33,522 nt of DNA. Source: a virus. Its lineage: Duplodnaviria; Caudoviricetes. Of this stretch, positions 1 to 25,658 are shown piece by piece. Where the stretch lies: the IMG/VR virus record IMGVR_UViG_3300046049_000069, positions 1-33,522 of that record, one strand, 5' to 3'. The stretch's first letter is position 1; each line of letters begins with the position of its first letter. Both the position numbers and the translations under genes were made by a program. The notes under the pieces were generated by a model, which searched no databases, had not been told where the DNA came from, and saw nothing but the letters and a program-made list of their open reading frames with translations.

Positions 1-305
1 GGGTTACGCTCCGCGTGGGCGATGAGTTCCCGCTCCGGGTGGAGTTCGAGGAGGACCGGTTCGGGATCTCCGGGGAGTACATGTTAGCGCCTCGTATCAA
101 CCGGGACGCCGATACCCACCCGAGCATAGCGGACGGGCCGACGTGGGGCGACCGGTTCGACACCCGCGACGAGTGTTACGCGGGCGACTGTGAGAACCCC
201 GTTTCCGAGGCGGCTATGGCGGACGGCTACCCGCTGTGTACGGACCACGACACGGACGAGGCGCGGAGCCTCTACGACGACCGCGACGAGGAGGACGCGG
301 ACTAA
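1..305 (+). CDS. Hypothetical protein, 5'-partial, with C-terminal Cys/His zinc-binding motif
   Basis: Frame is open to the window edge; acidic; CYAGDC...LCTDH; TAA overlaps the next ATG (TAATG). Confidence 0.6.
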   Translation, partial: VTLRVGDEFPLRVEFEEDRFGISGEYMLAPRINRDADTHPSIADGPTWGDRFDTRDECYAGDCENPVSEAAMADGYPLCTDHDTDEARSLYDDRDEEDAD

Positions 306-586: not shown

Positions 587-682
587 GTATGGAGTCCGAC
601 GACGACGAGATAGCGGACGTTCTATCCGACCTCAAATAACCGCTCCGTAGCGGGCGTCACTCTCCCGGTTTCCCGGGGTCGT

Positions 683-966
683 ATGTTCTACAAAAATTAG
701 AAACCCGTTTGACCGGATTTACTTTTCAGGAATTAAATCCTCTCGGAAGTCTCTCTAATTTCTGAACATGCTTTTCAAATCCATGTTTGAGAATTACGGA
801 GGATTCAAGACGACTGAATTTTCCGAGAATTAAATCACCTCGACCATGTTTCTAATTCCTGAACATGGATTTGAAAAGCATGTTCAGAAATTACGGAGGA
901 CTTCGAGCGGATTTAGATTATCAAAAATAAATGTGGGGATACGGGTTTCTAATTTTTGTAGAACAT
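683..966. repeat. AT-rich imperfect 284-bp palindrome made of ~97-bp periodic units; candidate replication origin or protein-binding array
   Basis: Perfect 26-bp IR (683-708/941-966) and perfect 32-bp IR (756-787/862-893) share one axis at 824.5; units 700-796, 797-893 and 894-967 align as direct repeats; no credible ORF. Function is inferred. Confidence 0.85.
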
Positions 967-1058
967 GTGAGTGGCGGGGAGAACCGCTTACACGGCGGGT
1001 ATTCGGGGGCGTTGAGTGACCGCTTTCCACGGTCGCCGCTACGCCGCGGTAGTTCAGA

Positions 1059-1071
1059 GGTAACTTTTTAA
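1059..1071 (+). promoter_or_regulatory. Archaeal BRE/TATA-like promoter (GGTAACTTTTTAA)
   Basis: About 35 bp upstream of ATG 1104; the same GTAACTTT core occurs near 6504 (+) and 26895 (-). Confidence 0.6.
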
Positions 1072-1103
1072 CCGTCCGTTCCGACGGTACGCCCGGACGA
1101 CCT

Positions 1104-2225
1104 ATGCCCGACGACGAAAGCCTTGGAGACTTTGAGGCGTCAGGGGACGAGGAGCCCCCGGACGCCTCGGAGGACTCAACCGAACAGGAGGCGTATCGCG
1201 GACAGACACATCCCGTCGACGACGAGGGACCGGCGCCCCCACAGCCCGGCGAGGAGGACCCGACGAAAGCCGCGAACTCCCCCGGGCAGCCCGACGTTCA
1301 GACCGTCCAAGCCAGACAGGAGGTAACGGACTTAGAGGACCGCCTCGACGACGTGGCGGCGGAAATTGAACGGAACCGTCCCCTCGGCCCGGAGAACCCG
1401 CTGTCCCTCGACCCTCGCGTCGGCGTGAACGACCTCGCGTTCGACAGGGCAAAACCCGGTGCGAAGGTCTACGTCGTGGACGTTCTCGCGGAGTCCGTCG
1501 ACGACTATTACGAGGCGTTCCCGGACGCCCCCGCGCTGGACGAGTACGGAGGGAACGTCCTCGTCCGGTTCCGCGACGCGGACGCCGTGTTCGCATGCGT
1601 CTACGTAAAGGACAGCCTCACGTCCGTCGACTCGAACCTCACCGCCTACCCCATGCCGGAGTCCCGCCTCACGCGTTACCCCGCGGAACAGGCGACCATG
1701 GTCGGATCCGCCTCCGAGGAGTTCGAGAGGACAGATTTCCCGGGTGGTCCCGCGCTCGGGACGGCGGAGGCTATCGCTACGACTCTTTCCGAGATTTGGG
1801 GACAGAACCCTCAAATCCCGGTCGGGGACACGACAGCTCCGAAAGTCGTAGACGCCCTCCGCGAGGAGTTTGACGAGGAAACGGTCCGCGAGGCGGTCCA
1901 GCGGGCGGGCTACGAGGAACAGGTCTACGGAGACGACGAGGAGGAGGTCGTAGCGGACGGCGGGGTAACGGAGGACGACCTCCGCGAGGCGACGGAGGAG
2001 TTTTTCGACGCGGACGACGTGGACAGCGTAGACTACGCCCCGGACCGCGACTTCGGTATGGTCGTCGTCTCCGTTGAGGAGGAGGACGCGGGGTTCGGAG
2101 ACGGTGAGACGTTTGACCTCTTAGAGTTCGAGGAGACGCTGAACTCCCACGGGTTCAGACATACCGGGTTCGCCCCCGCGCCCGGTATGACACAGGTAAA
2201 CGTCTCCGCGGGGGAGGAGGAGTAA
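1104..2225 (+). CDS. Acidic multidomain hypothetical protein
   Basis: 373 aa with haloarchaeal codon bias; central domain ending YPMPESRL resembles a recurring haloarchaeal motif (from recall); VADGG linker. Confidence 0.75.
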   Translation: MPDDESLGDFEASGDEEPPDASEDSTEQEAYRGQTHPVDDEGPAPPQPGEEDPTKAANSPGQPDVQTVQARQEVTDLEDRLDDVAAEIERNRPLGPENPLSLDPRVGVNDLAFDRAKPGAKVYVVDVLAESVDDYYEAFPDAPALDEYGGNVLVRFRDADAVFACVYVKDSLTSVDSNLTAYPMPESRLTRYPAEQATMVGSASEEFERTDFPGGPALGTAEAIATTLSEIWGQNPQIPVGDTTAPKVVDALREEFDEETVREAVQRAGYEEQVYGDDEEEVVADGGVTEDDLREATEEFFDADDVDSVDYAPDRDFGMVVVSVEEEDAGFGDGETFDLLEFEETLNSHGFRHTGFAPAPGMTQVNVSAGEEE

Positions 2226-2226
2226 C

Positions 2227-2400
2227 ATGGACGACCAGGACGAGGCGACGGGTGACGACCTCGTTACTCGTTTTTGTGCCTGTGGAGACTACGAGGTTCA
2301 GGTCTCGGACGGAGAGGTGGATATGGACGTTATCTGTCCCGAGTGTGGAAACCACTTTGGACAGGGAACCGGCCATTTAGCGGCGGCGGACGAGGAGTAA
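2227..2400 (+). CDS. CPxCG-type zinc-finger microprotein (57 aa)
   Basis: Translated manually: MDDQDEATGDDLVTRFCACGD...ICPECGNHF...DEE*; fills the gap exactly and is coupled to ATG 2400. Confidence 0.7.
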   Translation: MDDQDEATGDDLVTRFCACGDYEVQVSDGEVDMDVICPECGNHFGQGTGHLAAADEE

Positions 2401-4067
2401 TGTCGGACGCGGACCTACCTCTCGGCGTTGAGAAAGGCACAGGGGACCCGGTCTCTATCCCGATAACTCACACGCTCCTCACGGGGAAAACCCGGCATGG
2501 GAAAAGTGAGACCATGAAAACGCTCGCAGAGGCGGCGGTCGAGGCGGGCTATGCGGTGTTGCTGTTCGACGTGAAAACGCCGCGGGACTACGAGGGCATG
2601 GGACGACAAACCCCGGTCTACATAGAGGAGGGAACGAACCCGACGCGGCTGAAAGGCCTTCTCGAAAGTAGTTCTGAAATGTCCCTCTCATTCCAATTCC
2701 CGGAGTTAATCAAAGTCTACGAACCGGGGGACACCTACCGGGATATCCTCAACCGAACGCGGGCGTTCATGGAGGAGGACCGGCACCCGGTTGAGGAGGA
2801 TAAACTCCGGGTGATAGACCACCTCCTCAACGACCTCCTCCGCGACCTCGAAAACGTCGAGATCTCGGACACGCTGGACCTCGAACCCGGGATTAATGTC
2901 ATGGACCTCCACCATGTCGGGTCGGGCGTTCAGCAAATCGCTATCCAGTCCACGGTCGATCAAATCCTTAAAGCCGAAACCCGCGAGAACGTTATCATTG
3001 GGGTGGACGAGGCCCATAATTTCATCCCACAGCGGGGGAACCCGCCCGCGAACGAGACCATAACCCGTGCCATCCGGGAGGGCGGCGCGAAAGAGGTCTG
3101 GGTATGGCTGTCCGACCAAACGATAACCGGGGTGGATAAGGATCCACTCAAACAGGTAGGCGTGTGGATCCTCGGGAAACAGCGGGAGAAAAACGAGGCG
3201 GGGCGCGTCCTCGACCAAATCCCCGGGCGGGCTGAATACGCCTCCGAGGACGTCATGACCCTCGACAAAGGCCACTTTATCGTGGCGCTCGACGAGAAAC
3301 AACCCCTCGTTTACGTCCGTCCCCGGTGGGTGGACGACGAGACCGCCCGACAGATAGCCACAGGAGAAACCACGATGGACGAAACCGAACCCGAACCCGA
3401 CCGCGACGAGGTCGCGGACTTAGAGACACGGTTAGAGGAAAAGGACGCGGAGATCCACCGATTGGAACAGGAGAACTCGACCCTCCGCGAACGAACAGCG
3501 GACCTACAGGAACAGGTCGAGGGGCTGAATAGCCTCCTCGAACAGTCCGAGGCGCCCGGGGAGACGGACGACCCTGGGGAGGCCGCGGGCGACCCAGACG
3601 CCGCCCCGGTCCACATTTCGGAGTCTCGCGTTCGCGCTATCGTGATGGAGGAGTTCGAGGAGCTACGCGACCATGACTATTTCCCGACCGTTGAGGACGT
3701 GGTCGCGGAGATAGACGTTCCCGATGACGCCTACGTGGACCATGCAGAACCCCGGCTCGTCGTCCGGAACGTCGTCGAACCACTCCACCTCTCGACGGAC
3801 TCCATAAAGGGCAAAATCGCTATCCTCTACGCGGAGGGTGAACTCCCGGAAGACGAGTGGTTTACGACGGGGCTCCTCTACGACCTTTTTCAAACCCGGG
3901 GGTGGGACGACGACCCGCGTCGCGCCCACGGCATAGACGACTTCTGTAAATGGGGGTATTTCGAGCGGAAATATTACAACGAGACCCGACACTACCGCCT
4001 CTCTATGACGCCCGCGGAGGCGGAGGAACGCGGCCGCCTCAACTACGAGGAGGAGGTGAAGGCGTAG
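2400..4067 (+). CDS. HerA/FtsK/VirB4-superfamily P-loop ATPase with coiled coil and probable C-terminal winged-helix domain
   Basis: HTLLTGKTRHGKS Walker A, LLFDVK, VIIGVDEAHNF Walker B, REG...W..DQ motif; heptad-rich segment LETRLEEKDAEIHRLEQEN; start moved to the coupled ATG at 2400. Confidence 0.8.
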   Translation: MSDADLPLGVEKGTGDPVSIPITHTLLTGKTRHGKSETMKTLAEAAVEAGYAVLLFDVKTPRDYEGMGRQTPVYIEEGTNPTRLKGLLESSSEMSLSFQFPELIKVYEPGDTYRDILNRTRAFMEEDRHPVEEDKLRVIDHLLNDLLRDLENVEISDTLDLEPGINVMDLHHVGSGVQQIAIQSTVDQILKAETRENVIIGVDEAHNFIPQRGNPPANETITRAIREGGAKEVWVWLSDQTITGVDKDPLKQVGVWILGKQREKNEAGRVLDQIPGRAEYASEDVMTLDKGHFIVALDEKQPLVYVRPRWVDDETARQIATGETTMDETEPEPDRDEVADLETRLEEKDAEIHRLEQENSTLRERTADLQEQVEGLNSLLEQSEAPGETDDPGEAAGDPDAAPVHISESRVRAIVMEEFEELRDHDYFPTVEDVVAEIDVPDDAYVDHAEPRLVVRNVVEPLHLSTDSIKGKIAILYAEGELPEDEWFTTGLLYDLFQTRGWDDDPRRAHGIDDFCKWGYFERKYYNETRHYRLSMTPAEAEERGRLNYEEEVKA

Positions 4068-4069
4068 CC

Positions 4070-4249
4070 ATGTCTCACGCCGCCTACGCGACACTCTCGG
4101 GCGCCCTCGTCGCGTCCGCGTGGTTCGTCCTCAACCCCCTGAACCTCGGACAGGTAACGGCGGCCGCGGCGGGGTTCGTCGTCGGCGTCGTCGTCTACCT
4201 CGGGATAGCGATAGTCGACAGCCTCTCGGAACGGAGGACGGGGGCATGA
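4070..4249 (+). CDS. Small membrane protein with two TM helices
   Basis: MSHAAYATLSGALVASAWFVL...AAAAGFVVGVVVYLGIAIV; TAGCCATG coupling. Confidence 0.65.
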   Translation: MSHAAYATLSGALVASAWFVLNPLNLGQVTAAAAGFVVGVVVYLGIAIVDSLSERRTGA

Positions 4250-5013
4250 AACGCGGTGTTATCGGCGTTCCGGACTCCTCGGGCTGGATAGCGACGGTTG
4301 AGGGCGTTGAGACCACGCGACAGGACGAACTCGGGAACGACCGGACCGCCGCCCTTTCCGTTACCGAACAACGGGACCTCATGGGCGGGACGACGTACTA
4401 CAGCGGCGAGGCGTTCCGGGAGCGGACCGTCGAGAACGAGGGCTACGAGTATCGGGACGGGGTAATTAAAACGACGCGGAACCTACAGGAAACGGTAGAC
4501 CACACCCGGTACGTCCTCGTCCCCCGCGTCGAGGACGCCCACGCCGGATACATGGTCGTCTCGTCGTCCAGCGGCGTGTTCGCGTTCGCTACCGTGTCCC
4601 GACAGAACCCCGGACGCGTTCAGGCGGCGCGGATCCGGACCGGGGACTTTCTCCGCGACCGCCGCGACGAGGTGGACGTCAAGACCGCGGGCGGAACCAC
4701 CGGGTCGCCGCACGCCGGGAAAGTAACCGCGTGGGGAGACGACGTGTTAGCGGACCCCGACATGGACGACCTCCTCGGGCGACAGGTCCACGGAGACCTC
4801 CTCAACCAGGTCGCGGTCCGCTACATATGGGACAACATCCCCCACTACGTCTATCTCGCCCGGTCGGGCTACGTCGAGATCTACAAACCGACCGACACGA
4901 CCACGGAACAGTTTTTGAACTACGTCCGTCGGGAAATTATCCCGTATACGGACGCGGCGGAGACCGACGGGGAACAGTCTAGTCTCGACGAGGCGGACGA
5001 GGGGGACGAGTAA
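4246..5013 (+). CDS. Hypothetical protein with C-terminal QSSLDE motif
   Basis: ATGA overlap; MKRGVIG... 255 aa; acidic tail. Confidence 0.7.
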   Translation: MKRGVIGVPDSSGWIATVEGVETTRQDELGNDRTAALSVTEQRDLMGGTTYYSGEAFRERTVENEGYEYRDGVIKTTRNLQETVDHTRYVLVPRVEDAHAGYMVVSSSSGVFAFATVSRQNPGRVQAARIRTGDFLRDRRDEVDVKTAGGTTGSPHAGKVTAWGDDVLADPDMDDLLGRQVHGDLLNQVAVRYIWDNIPHYVYLARSGYVEIYKPTDTTTEQFLNYVRREIIPYTDAAETDGEQSSLDEADEGDE

Positions 5014-5439: not shown

Positions 5440-6483
5440 ATGTCACACGCGAAAAGACAGGGAGCGGCGTTTTTCTCCGGGGGCTACGACTCTCTCGTCT
5501 CCACCTACAAAACGATGGAGGTGGACGGGAACGCGGACCGCGTGGTTCACGTAGACACGGGGACCGGAATCCCGTTAAACGAGCGGTTCGTCGAGGCGGC
5601 CGCACAGAACTATGGGTGGTATCTCGTTAAACTCCGTCCTCGTAAGACTTTCTGGTGGTACGCGAAAAAGTACGGGTTCCCCGGGCCGAGTAAACACTCG
5701 TGGTATTACCGGTATCTGAAAGAACACCCGATTAAGCGGTTCTGTCGTATCTACGACGGGAAGCCCTACCTCTATACGGGCGTCCGAAAGGCGGAGTCGA
5801 ACCCCCGCATGGGTCGCGTCGTCGACCTGAACGAGGCGGAGTTCGGGTATTGGAACGCTCCATTGGCGGAGTGGACGGACGAGGACGTGGAGGCGTTCCT
5901 CGTCGACCACAGCCTCCCGCGGAACCCGGTCGTCGAGGAGATAGCCCGGTCGGGGGAGTGTTACTGTATGGCGTATGGTCTCCGGGAGTTCGAGGTGGAT
6001 CTCCGCGGCTACGAGGACGAGGCCCCGCCGGAGTGGTTACGCTCCCACGTCCAACGTCTCAAACGCAAAGAGTGGGAAGTTCAGGCTTACCGCGGTCGCG
6101 TCCACGGGTATCTAAAAGAGGACTACCCGGACGTGTATGAGGCGATTCACGACTACCGGACTGAGAACGACGACTCTCGTCTCCGCCTCGCCGTCCTCCG
6201 CGAACAGCATCCGGATCTCGCGGCGGAGATAGAGTCCATAGACGAGGTGGTGGCTGTCTCAAAGGGTCGAGAACAGGACTATTCATGGTTAGGACACGGG
6301 AAAATGTCCAGTCCGGAACTCCGTCGTAAGACCATGCCGGACACACAGGAACTTCTCTGTGAGGACTGTCGGGACTCCACCTCGACCGCGGGCGTCTCTC
6401 ACCCGGATCCGGACGCCCGCCTTCTCGTCGAACCGGAGGAACCGGACGCCGGGGAACAGTCCAGTTTCGACGACCTTCTCTAA
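5440..6483 (+). CDS. PAPS reductase-family (adenine nucleotide alpha hydrolase) protein
   Basis: PP-loop FSGGYDS, VHVDTG, TGVRKAES..R, PLAEWTDEDV, SGECYC and distal CEDC. Confidence 0.85.
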   Translation: MSHAKRQGAAFFSGGYDSLVSTYKTMEVDGNADRVVHVDTGTGIPLNERFVEAAAQNYGWYLVKLRPRKTFWWYAKKYGFPGPSKHSWYYRYLKEHPIKRFCRIYDGKPYLYTGVRKAESNPRMGRVVDLNEAEFGYWNAPLAEWTDEDVEAFLVDHSLPRNPVVEEIARSGECYCMAYGLREFEVDLRGYEDEAPPEWLRSHVQRLKRKEWEVQAYRGRVHGYLKEDYPDVYEAIHDYRTENDDSRLRLAVLREQHPDLAAEIESIDEVVAVSKGREQDYSWLGHGKMSSPELRRKTMPDTQELLCEDCRDSTSTAGVSHPDPDARLLVEPEEPDAGEQSSFDDLL

Positions 6484-9628: not shown

Positions 9629-9956
9629 CGTCAGACAGACGTCACACACAACATTAACACCCCTCCCCACGCACCCAACCATGTGGCGGACACCACCCCG
9701 CGGACCCCTCCGCGACGGTAACCCGCCACCGGAGCGTCACACACTCCACCCCCATCTTCCCCCGACAATCCACAGAACAGCAGCCATATAGCCGCACATC
9801 ACCGCGGACACCCGAACGCGACCCACCACACCCCGGAACCGTTCACCCCCGCCACACCCCGCTCACGCCCGTCTAACAACCGCTGTAAAACCCCAACCCA
9901 TACCGATAGTGACCCGACCGTATATTTAACACGCTTCCCCCGATACGTCTCTCCTA

Positions 9957-10280
9957 ATGAGAGACAAACACCGTCGAACGAACAGGACGGTCGGCACGAA
10001 CCAGCCGACGACCACCCCGACGGGACAGGGACTCCGATCCCTCACAGTCATAACACCCGTCGGAGACGTCTCCGTCGCGTTCGGAGTAAACCACCATATC
10101 GCGGCGGTCGCCGCGGAGGTGTTAACCCGCCTCGAACGAGACCCGGAGCTACAGACATACAGCCTCGTCCTCGTCGAGGGTGACGAGGGGACGCCGCTGG
10201 ACCACGGGGACACGCTCGGATCCGCCGGGGTGGCAGACGGGGCGGAACTCGTCCTCGAAAGCAACCCCGTAGCGATATGA
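9957..10280 (+). CDS. Ubiquitin-like (beta-grasp, YukD/EsaB-like) protein
   Basis: PLDHGDTLGSAGVADGAELVL matches the ubiquitin/YukD C-terminal L.D..TL...G+.DG..L.L pattern; TATTTAA promoter near 9923. Confidence 0.6.
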   Translation: MRDKHRRTNRTVGTNQPTTTPTGQGLRSLTVITPVGDVSVAFGVNHHIAAVAAEVLTRLERDPELQTYSLVLVEGDEGTPLDHGDTLGSAGVADGAELVLESNPVAI

Positions 10281-25178: not shown

Positions 25179-25436
25179 ATGAATTGGGACCAGTACGAGG
25201 ACCTTGTCGAGAAAGCCGCGGCGTCCAAACAGGAACGGACTGCCCGAGAGGTTGAGATAGAACAGGCGCTAAACTGTTCTATGCCGGGGCTCCTCCGGCG
25301 TCTCCTCGACGAGAACGACGGGAAAGTCCGGTCGGGGCTCCGCCAGTTGAACGAGCGGCTGGACGAGGCGGGGATGGACGCGGACGTCTCGCCGAACACG
25401 TTCTACGATTATCTGGACAAATACCGACTCCGGTAG
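25179..25436 (+). CDS. Small HTH-like DNA-binding protein
   Basis: C-terminal VSPNTFYDYLDKY resembles a recognition helix; AT-rich upstream region. Confidence 0.6.
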   Translation: MNWDQYEDLVEKAAASKQERTAREVEIEQALNCSMPGLLRRLLDENDGKVRSGLRQLNERLDEAGMDADVSPNTFYDYLDKYRLR

Positions 25437-25442
25437 ACCCGC

Positions 25443-25570
25443 TGGGGGTAGATTGAAGTCCCCGGCGGGCTACTCGTCGGGTGTGGAGTCCGGCGAAAGC
25501 GGAAACCCATTTCGGGATTGAAACGAGTAGGCTGACTCCACAGTCCGGGGGATTACTCACCTCACCCCCA
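25443..25570 (+). ncRNA. Putative structured ncRNA containing a solitary CRISPR-repeat-like unit
   Basis: Complementary pairs 25443-449/25564-570, 25460-465/25545-550, 25470-477/25523-530 and 25482-490/25534-542; no credible ORF. Confidence 0.5.
25488..25524 (+). CRISPR. Solitary 37-nt CRISPR-repeat-like unit (haloarchaeal I-D-like), not an array
   Basis: GTCCGGCGAAAGCGGAAACCCATTTCGGGATTGAAAC: 37 nt, GTC start, AAACCC-N5-GGG hairpin, ATTGAAAC 3' handle; the match to I-D repeats is from recall. Confidence 0.6.
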
Positions 25571-25634: not shown

Positions 25635-25658
25635 TACTCTCCACTTGAAAACGAGGGG

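Follow-up and report, generated by a model that had tools for sequence, protein, structure and literature searches.

An AT-rich palindromic array of 284 bp, putatively a protein-docking site, in a haloarchaeal tailed virus

Introduction

Proteins and molecular motors are loaded onto DNA at arrays of short boxes, as in iteron and operator arrays, plasmid centromeres, and the FtsK-gamma/KOPS system. The palindromic units of BIMEs follow an alternating layout, and hairpin-telomere resolution sites of the N15 telRL type form a perfect palindrome at the central axis.

Several comparable elements have been described in haloarchaea, their viruses, and other prokaryotes. SMR-A of Haloquadratum walsbyi is ~110 bp long, has terminal inverted repeats, produces no duplication and inserts in palindromes; the mobilisation of the SMR class has been described as enigmatic (PMC3119063). 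Haloarchaeal orc/cdc6 origins are AT-rich and carry inverted ORB repeats with a G-string (PMC3528665). The intergenic repeats of halovirus HF2 are dispersed promoter units of 29-58 bp (PMC8707807), and the haloarchaeal promoter pattern has been given as SRnnRnnnTTWW (PMC5974055). BIME/REP sequences of Escherichia coli are short GC-rich palindromic units scattered as hundreds of copies and associated with RAYT transposases (PMC3184786), and the dif site comprises two 11-nt inverted repeats flanking a 6-nt spacer (PMC8371274).

This study presents a computational analysis of an AT-rich intergenic element at positions 683-966 of a viral contig, which an initial annotation had interpreted as a phased binding platform for two dimeric proteins, such as a bidirectional origin, partition site, or cruciform/hairpin end, or else as a long hairpin RNA. 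The region is a real, sharply bounded cis-element, which we tentatively regard as a putative docking array.

Genomic context of the element

The window analysed is the whole record IMGVR_UViG_3300046049_000069, a linear contig of 33,522 bp that is ~62% complete, i.e., ~38% of the genome is missing. It contains terminase, portal, protease, major head, and tail-tube genes, and its capsid protein is 44% identical to that of HCTV-2 and 42% identical to that of HHTV-2 (both Saparoviridae). Because of this gene set and capsid protein, the contig is assigned to a haloarchaeal tailed virus related to HCTV-2/HHTV-2. The element lies within a ~420-bp gap between a 16-codon open reading frame (ending at 639), located downstream of a PCNA-like gene, and a promoter-like motif that is common to relatives and begins about 90 bp downstream of the element. 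All flanking genes lie on the + strand. Open reading frames overlapping the element encode merely 21-57 aa and none is credible, so a coding role was dropped. The features of the locus are as follows.

3..305, + strand: viral PCNA-like gene, C-terminal part (upstream synteny anchor)
640..682, unstranded: GC-rich left flank, which on folding pairs with the right flank once the element is deleted in silico (weak support)
683..966, unstranded: the complete AT-rich element, composed of three palindromic modules of 97 bp, with its overall dyad at 824.5 (symmetry and period analysis)
683..708, + strand: left terminal inverted repeat, 26 bp, perfect, with the variant half-box ATGTT-N7-AATTA (arm pairing)
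716..739, unstranded: box A1, GATTTA-N12-TAAATC, dyad 727.5 (sequence, dyad scan)
756..796, unstranded: box B1, TAATT-N4-AACATG-N11-CATGTT-N4-AATTA, dyad 776, with an asymmetric 11-bp spacer at 771-781 (sequence, dyad scan)
812..836, unstranded: box A2, right half intact, left half degenerate (motif comparison)
853..893, unstranded: box B2, dyad 873, spacer 868-878 the exact reverse complement of the B1 spacer (arm pairing)
910..932, unstranded: box A3, GATTTA-N12-TAAAT, dyad 921.5 (sequence, dyad scan)
941..966, - strand: right terminal inverted repeat, 26 bp, perfect (arm pairing)
967..1058, unstranded: GC-rich right flank with short hairpins (folding)
1059..1072, + strand: promoter-like motif before the 373-aa gene, outside the element (comparison with relatives)
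1104..2225, + strand: 373-aa gene conserved in relatives, function unassigned (downstream synteny anchor)
2400..4067, + strand: candidate partner gene, encoding a HerA/DUF87-like ATPase that has a coiled coil and, by prediction, a winged helix at its C-terminus (profile and Atlas models)

Elsewhere in the window, a PAPS-reductase-domain gene (5440-6483, E=8e-19) and a ubiquitin-like gene (9957-10280, YukD, E=5e-7) were recognised. A single 37-nt CRISPR-repeat-like unit at 25488-25524 matches Rfam CRISPR-DR60 over its full length (19 bits, E=1.2, gathering score 45). It follows an 85-aa open reading frame (25179-25436) without a Pfam match, and a second degenerate stretch ending in ATTGAAG occupies 25430-25459, ~28 nt upstream. 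The unit was not found in the related loci scanned. Judged by its sequence, it is a candidate solitary repeat, resembling an RNA anti-CRISPR, or a mini-array; RNA anti-CRISPRs reportedly take the form of a solitary repeat, which is the comparison behind this reading.

Symmetry, periodicity, and composition

The initial annotation had described a 284-bp palindrome with its axis at 824.5, two perfect inverted repeats of 26 and 32 bp on that axis with partly symmetric sequence between them, a 97-bp tandem array, and strong AT-richness in a GC-rich genome; all of these observations were borne out. About the axis, 99 of 142 ungapped pairs are complementary, compared with a mean of 38.6 and a maximum of 61 in 20,000 shuffles of the element. 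The perfect runs comprise 26 bp (683-708/941-966) and 32 bp (756-787/862-893). By zone, pairing reaches 26/26 at the ends, 29/47 in the A1/linker region between the repeats, and 32/32 around box B, falling to 12/37 at the centre (788-824) and 8/28 in the flanks. When indels are allowed, the two arms are 82% complementary. The best direct offset is 97 bp (55.6% identity; shuffles 26.9%, maximum 40.1%), and since none of 5,000 random perfect palindromes matched to the element in composition exceeded 54.3% identity at any offset, the period is not a mere by-product of the symmetry. Tandem Repeats Finder did not call the array at score 30, and it is therefore a diverged one.

The element has a GC content of 35.6%, as compared with 62.6% for the contig, and contains the least stable 100-bp and 250-bp duplexes of the contig. 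Its A-tracts are not in helical phase at 10-11 bp (0.19, a score that 96% of random placements equal or better). Thus, of the phased platform proposed earlier, the exact fixed spacing described below stands, whereas helical phasing of the A-tracts does not. A cruciform is unlikely because the A-tracts are unphased and the centre is unpaired, and the lack of pairing across the central 74 bp speaks against a hairpin telomere, so the cruciform or hairpin end suggested initially lost ground. A resolution site of the hairpin-telomere type was likewise rejected, with pairing at only 12 of 37 positions at the central axis.

Since the element lies near the contig end, a fold-back artefact of assembly or amplification was also considered, and we regard it as highly improbable. 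Such a chimera would copy adjacent sequence almost perfectly, whereas the arms here are just 82% complementary and contain indels; moreover, no other part of the contig contains this sequence, and the genes to either side remain intact and in synteny.

Organization of boxes and half-units

The array can be resolved into six half-units of alternating orientation with the consensus CATGTT-N4-AATTA-N15-GGATTTA. Their AATTA anchors are spaced exactly 61/36/61/36/61 bp apart, even though the half-units are identical at only 12-27 of 34 positions from the anchor onward; half-units 2 and 5 show apparent compensating indels that keep the 15-bp linker length. Secondary dyads were located at 727.5, 776, and 873, with a weaker one at 921.5 (21/45). 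The earlier placement of box A near 727, 824, and 921 thus holds for the outer two boxes, while at 824 only the right half is present, the left half matching GGATTTA at 3 of 7 positions. The assignment of box B to 776 and 873 was reproduced at both dyads, and the terminal half-boxes differ from it in that ATGTT and AATTA are separated by 7 bp and not 4.

Box A right halves and B half-sites have words of 8-11 bases in common: TTCAGGAATTA occurs at 725-735 (box A right half) and, reversed, at 853-863 (B half-site), and GAGAATTA, at 789-796 and 825-832, is common to a B half-site and a box A right half. Modules 2 and 3 have AATTACGGAGGA and AATTAGAAAC in common in direct register, and module 1 mirrors module 3, so the simplest history, suggested by the sequence, is a tandem duplication followed by a fold-back duplication. 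One palindromic module would have been duplicated in tandem to give modules 2 and 3; module 3 with the B spacer would then have been copied back as an inverted duplication, giving module 1, after which fold-back correction would have kept the two B-containing arms identical.

The boxes and their spacing show signs of selection. Motif positions are identical between the arms at 38/39 sites compared with 49/66 for non-motif positions (p=0.002), while non-motif bases are identical at 31/31 sites inside the two perfect repeats and at 18/35 in the A region (p=2e-6). The array could alternatively be functionless DNA, left in a tolerant, variable slot by successive fold-back and tandem duplications, or a cluster of weak promoter-like AT motifs. 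A duplication history by itself yields symmetry and periodicity, the element is on one contig only, and it contains five matches to SRnnRnnnTTWW, a count inflated by AT-richness. However, the boxes and exact spacing were selectively kept while the linkers diverged, and compact phage genomes seldom retain functionless DNA, which makes either possibility decidedly unlikely.

A restriction-word purge test on the element gave P(0)=0.51. In the window as a whole, palindromic words are strongly avoided (CTAG 1 vs 65 expected; CTCGAG and TCGCGA absent; GCGC, GGCC, AGCT, and GTAC at half expectation), and relatives shun other words, with no CATG in L043 and no GATC in L054.

Folding potential

The region 640-1060 folds with an energy of -198.3 kcal/mol (z=-13.5), and this strong fold raises the possibility that the element acts as a long hairpin, either in RNA read through from the upstream operon or in single-stranded DNA, selected for pairing of the arms. 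Perfect pairing takes in non-motif bases, the flanks lengthen the stem, and a local side hairpin containing G.U pairs is predicted at ~797-825, near the centre. Folding is nevertheless expected of any palindrome, and both strands behave alike: RNA folding energies are -136.7 vs -133.9 kcal/mol without + or - bias, and wobble-type mismatches number 9 (+) vs 6 (-). Neither the 97-bp period nor the fixed spacings are explained by pairing. In Rfam, the interval 500-1200 gave 13 matches at E up to 5, all below gathering (the best at 56.6 vs 139.7 bits), those to the hairpin being sub-threshold microRNA-hairpin matches; a known structured RNA family was accordingly rejected. The hairpin RNA of the initial annotation thus survives as a possibility, without support from strand bias or a threshold Rfam match, and we consider the hairpin reading unlikely.

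Distribution among related viruses and sequence collections

Nine syntenic loci of three lineages (L003/L006-L011, L004, and L005) keep the PCNA gene, the promoter, and the 373-aa gene, with 52-61% best-segment identity in the 373-aa protein, and lack the element. Ahead of the promoter, these loci have a gap of 6-51 bp. Applied to the window, the same script returned 39 bp, but only by including a 57-aa open reading frame that starts inside the element and is not credited. Different small genes occupy the syntenic slot. As these relatives are distant and the gene content of the slot differs, absence from them does not imply a recent insertion. In L005, the same variable slot contains a duplicated promoter-plus-leader cassette (2486-2607 and 3055-3127) before two small genes, and L003 encodes a TFIIB-repeat protein (3383-4255, E=3e-20).

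The initial annotation had suggested looking for the same architecture in related viruses, and none was recovered. Against 133.7 bits for the element, ungapped palindrome scans, which pass over 150-200 bp at piece ends, gave at best 36.9 bits in 25 related loci and 33.7 bits in 24 pieces taken from 11 halovirus records (HCTV-2 and HHTV-2 with their first 50 kb, the other nine in full). Pattern scans of IMG/VR yielded no match to the full B box, six to the terminal 17-mer (all by chance in AT-rich contigs), and 21 to the half-unit pattern, none of them palindromic. Searches with blastn found no match to the element in phages and, in plasmids, only a 34-bp match to a Brevibacillus plasmid or short weak ones.

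In GTDB genomes, a single exact pattern of the full B box matched four times, all in bacteria and never in haloarchaea; as this one pattern was the sole probe of haloarchaeal host genomes, these may contain copies. Three of the matches belong to a ~105-bp dispersed palindrome in one Crinalium genome, which was set aside as unrelated because a GC stem-loop forms its 11-bp spacer and its arms show no convincing alignment beyond the searched motif. Across 301 cyanobacterial genomes, only matches of 20-47 bp were obtained, in 13 of them. In its own right, the Crinalium repeat gave 76 blast matches over both strands of that MAG and shows paired changes in the central stem (CATG to CGTG on both arms).

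The element therefore occurs once within the 33.5-kb contig and in none of the IMG/VR, phage, plasmid, and GTDB collections searched, and no description of it was found in a literature search with most subscription journals outside its scope. It is so far unique, a single instance absent from the related viruses examined.

Comparison with mobile, recombination, and origin elements

A serious, though less probable, alternative to docking is that the element is a non-autonomous mobile repeat, i.e., an SMR/MITE-like fold-back element that entered a GC-rich hairpin without duplicating its target and that may comprise three ~97-bp units, either nested or in tandem. In that case, a transposase or recombinase acting in trans would bind the boxes, and the virus would carry the element as a passenger. 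The 26-bp perfect repeats lie at its exact ends, its composition is foreign, and the syntenic slot of relatives lacks it. No target duplication was detected, a boundary grid giving just 3-4 bp repeats within the ends. After in silico removal of 683-966, the flanks fold together (z=-2.35), the gain from joining them having p of about 0.06 and 0.01 under two shuffles, and a 9-bp stem lengthens to 13 bp across the junction, as it would with 3.7% of window 4-mers. This empty-site evidence is, however, marginal and post hoc, and the IMG/VR search for an empty allele with the right-flank hairpin returned two chance matches. One copy in 33.5 kb, the lack of haloarchaeal B-box matches in the GTDB scan and of any real plasmid or phage match, and internal boxes that alternate in direction instead of all facing inward also speak against mobility.

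Similarly to SMR-A as described, the element is non-coding, set in a haloarchaeal context, bounded by terminal inverted repeats without target duplication, and possibly inserted in a palindrome, and its 97-bp module approaches the ~110 bp of SMR-A; compared by description, it differs in its 284-bp length, three internal modules, and single copy (PMC3119063). A target of the SMR-A type (a PATE/IS605 near-terminal palindrome) may have its counterpart here in a weak empty-site hairpin, and the flank has no plasmid match. Resemblance to the ends of IS4 elements (IS231/ISH8), as given in PMC2266710, includes half-boxes that start with CAT and have AA at 11-12, and a B spacer of 11 bp, the length of IS231/ISH8 target duplications. 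In contrast to IS231, TAA at 15-17 is unmatched, and in contrast to ISH8, T at 15 is unmatched; the left end starts with T, a flanking duplication is missing, and the spacers are inverted and not direct (PMC2266710). An IS4-type MITE was therefore rejected: the terminal repeats pair at 26/26 bp, but a target duplication is absent and the ends in Table 1 of that paper are only partly matched by eye (PMC2266710). Like BIMEs, which are protein-binding sites, the element is a mosaic of palindromic units and linkers; unlike REP/BIME, it has 35.6% GC and a single locus, and no RAYT match was found in 40 open reading frames (PMC3184786). It shares AT-rich intergenic motifs in a halovirus with the HF2 repeats, but it forms one symmetric block, with a separate shared promoter ~90 bp downstream (PMC8707807).

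The inverted B boxes, together with the terminal repeats, could also allow a tyrosine or serine recombinase to invert or resolve the DNA. B1 and B2 carry the same asymmetric 11-bp spacer in opposite orientations, and the half-units share blocks in mosaic fashion. On the other hand, no recombinase was recognised among the 40 open reading frames scanned, the invertible segment carries no gene, and the layout departs from the 11-6-11 geometry given for dif (PMC8371274), so we judge site-specific recombination quite unlikely. A Xer/dif site was excluded, as the spacers measure 11 bp (B) and 12 bp (A) instead of 6 (PMC8371274).

With orc/cdc6 origins, the element shares AT-rich DNA of low stability and inverted motifs (PMC3528665). 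An ORB-like pattern with a G-string, based on the ORB consensus and shaped after the motif at 25640 had been seen, matched only there and not in the element, where the longest G run is 4 bases. No Cdc6/Orc was detected among the 40 open reading frames scanned, the neighbours of the element being the PCNA-like and 373-aa genes. With the element missing from relatives and an ORB/G-string match absent, the earlier suggestion of a bidirectional origin is not supported as a family-wide proposal.

Two further observations concern replication-like sites. One ORB-like motif with a G-string, unique in the window, lies at 25640-25658, with a C-rich tract just upstream on the same strand; none of the related loci scanned has this motif. 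Three related viruses (9630-9950 here, ~7120-7690 in L098, and ~14520-15180 in L004) have a long C-skewed non-coding stretch in the same place, ahead of the ubiquitin-like gene with the YukD match, and its sequence shows little identity between viruses. This stretch is a better candidate than 683-966 for a family-wide origin, terminus, or packaging site.

A putative docking array and its candidate partner

Our preferred reading, held tentatively and with somewhat less than even confidence, is that the element is a docking array, specific to this lineage, where a dimeric DNA-binding protein would bind to readily melted DNA, since fixed spacing with drifting linkers typifies protein-binding arrays. 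Dimers would bind each B (and A) dyad cooperatively along ~280 bp and, once bound, would organise or open the DNA. The protein-binding platform proposed in the initial annotation is consistent with the exact spacing and conserved boxes. The two proteins proposed there are not required: because box A right halves share words with B half-sites, a single protein could read both boxes. Docking and mobile-repeat readings overlap, given that the ends of mobile elements also bind protein. Perfect identity of non-motif bases is not predicted by protein binding alone and therefore points to pairing, recombination, or conversion, and the perfect terminal repeats and foreign composition suit a mobile element equally well.

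Like iteron/operator, centromere, and KOPS-type arrays, the element has repeated short boxes at fixed spacing in AT-rich DNA, and an ATPase for which a winged helix is predicted is encoded nearby; unlike in those arrays, its boxes form alternating dyads and not direct repeats, they are unphased, and the gene is not adjacent. By analogy, it appears to work most like an iteron/operator array or an SMR-like repeat, and it is not assigned to any of the known classes compared here.

The leading candidate partner, proposed speculatively, is the HerA-like ATPase encoded 1.4 kb downstream of the element, a protein of 555 aa with 25 metagenomic homologues. It matches HerA in the PDB (E=3e-9), and DUF87 was found in 19 of 22 aligned homologues. 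Its winged helix is predicted solely from Atlas models of the C-terminus, with TM scores of 0.52-0.57 to BlaI/CopY, ArsR, PadR, and Fur clusters, all below the naming bar. The ATPase and four homologues gave no match in 53 related halovirus loci (0.93 Mb with overlaps), and a single-sequence viral scan found no homologues; the ATPase is thus missing where the element is missing. Joint absence from distant relatives in a variable region is weak evidence, the link is circumstantial, and the conserved 373-aa gene and its promoter stand between the element and the ATPase gene. As the contig lacks ~38% of the genome, a different partner may be encoded in the remainder.

If the ATPase is the partner, the element would be a private motor-loading site of this lineage, origin-like or partition-like. 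A broader proposal, which we consider doubtful, is that the array and the gene for the HerA-like ATPase with its coiled coil and winged helix constitute an undescribed two-part module of haloarchaeal tailed viruses, in which winged helices would read the alternating dyads and load a ring-shaped motor onto meltable DNA at a private, Orc-independent origin or segregation site, swappable in the variable slot.

Biological significance

Hardycor1 and HHTV-2 are without a replicase gene and need host enzymes, according to PMC7911831, and no mapped origin was found for viruses of the Hardycor1/HHTV-2 type in the literature searched. Should the element prove to be a mobile repeat, the SMR class (PMC3119063) would gain a relative built of several modules. 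The compact, bounded 284-bp element and its candidate partner gene form a ready construct for ARS, stability, and binding assays.
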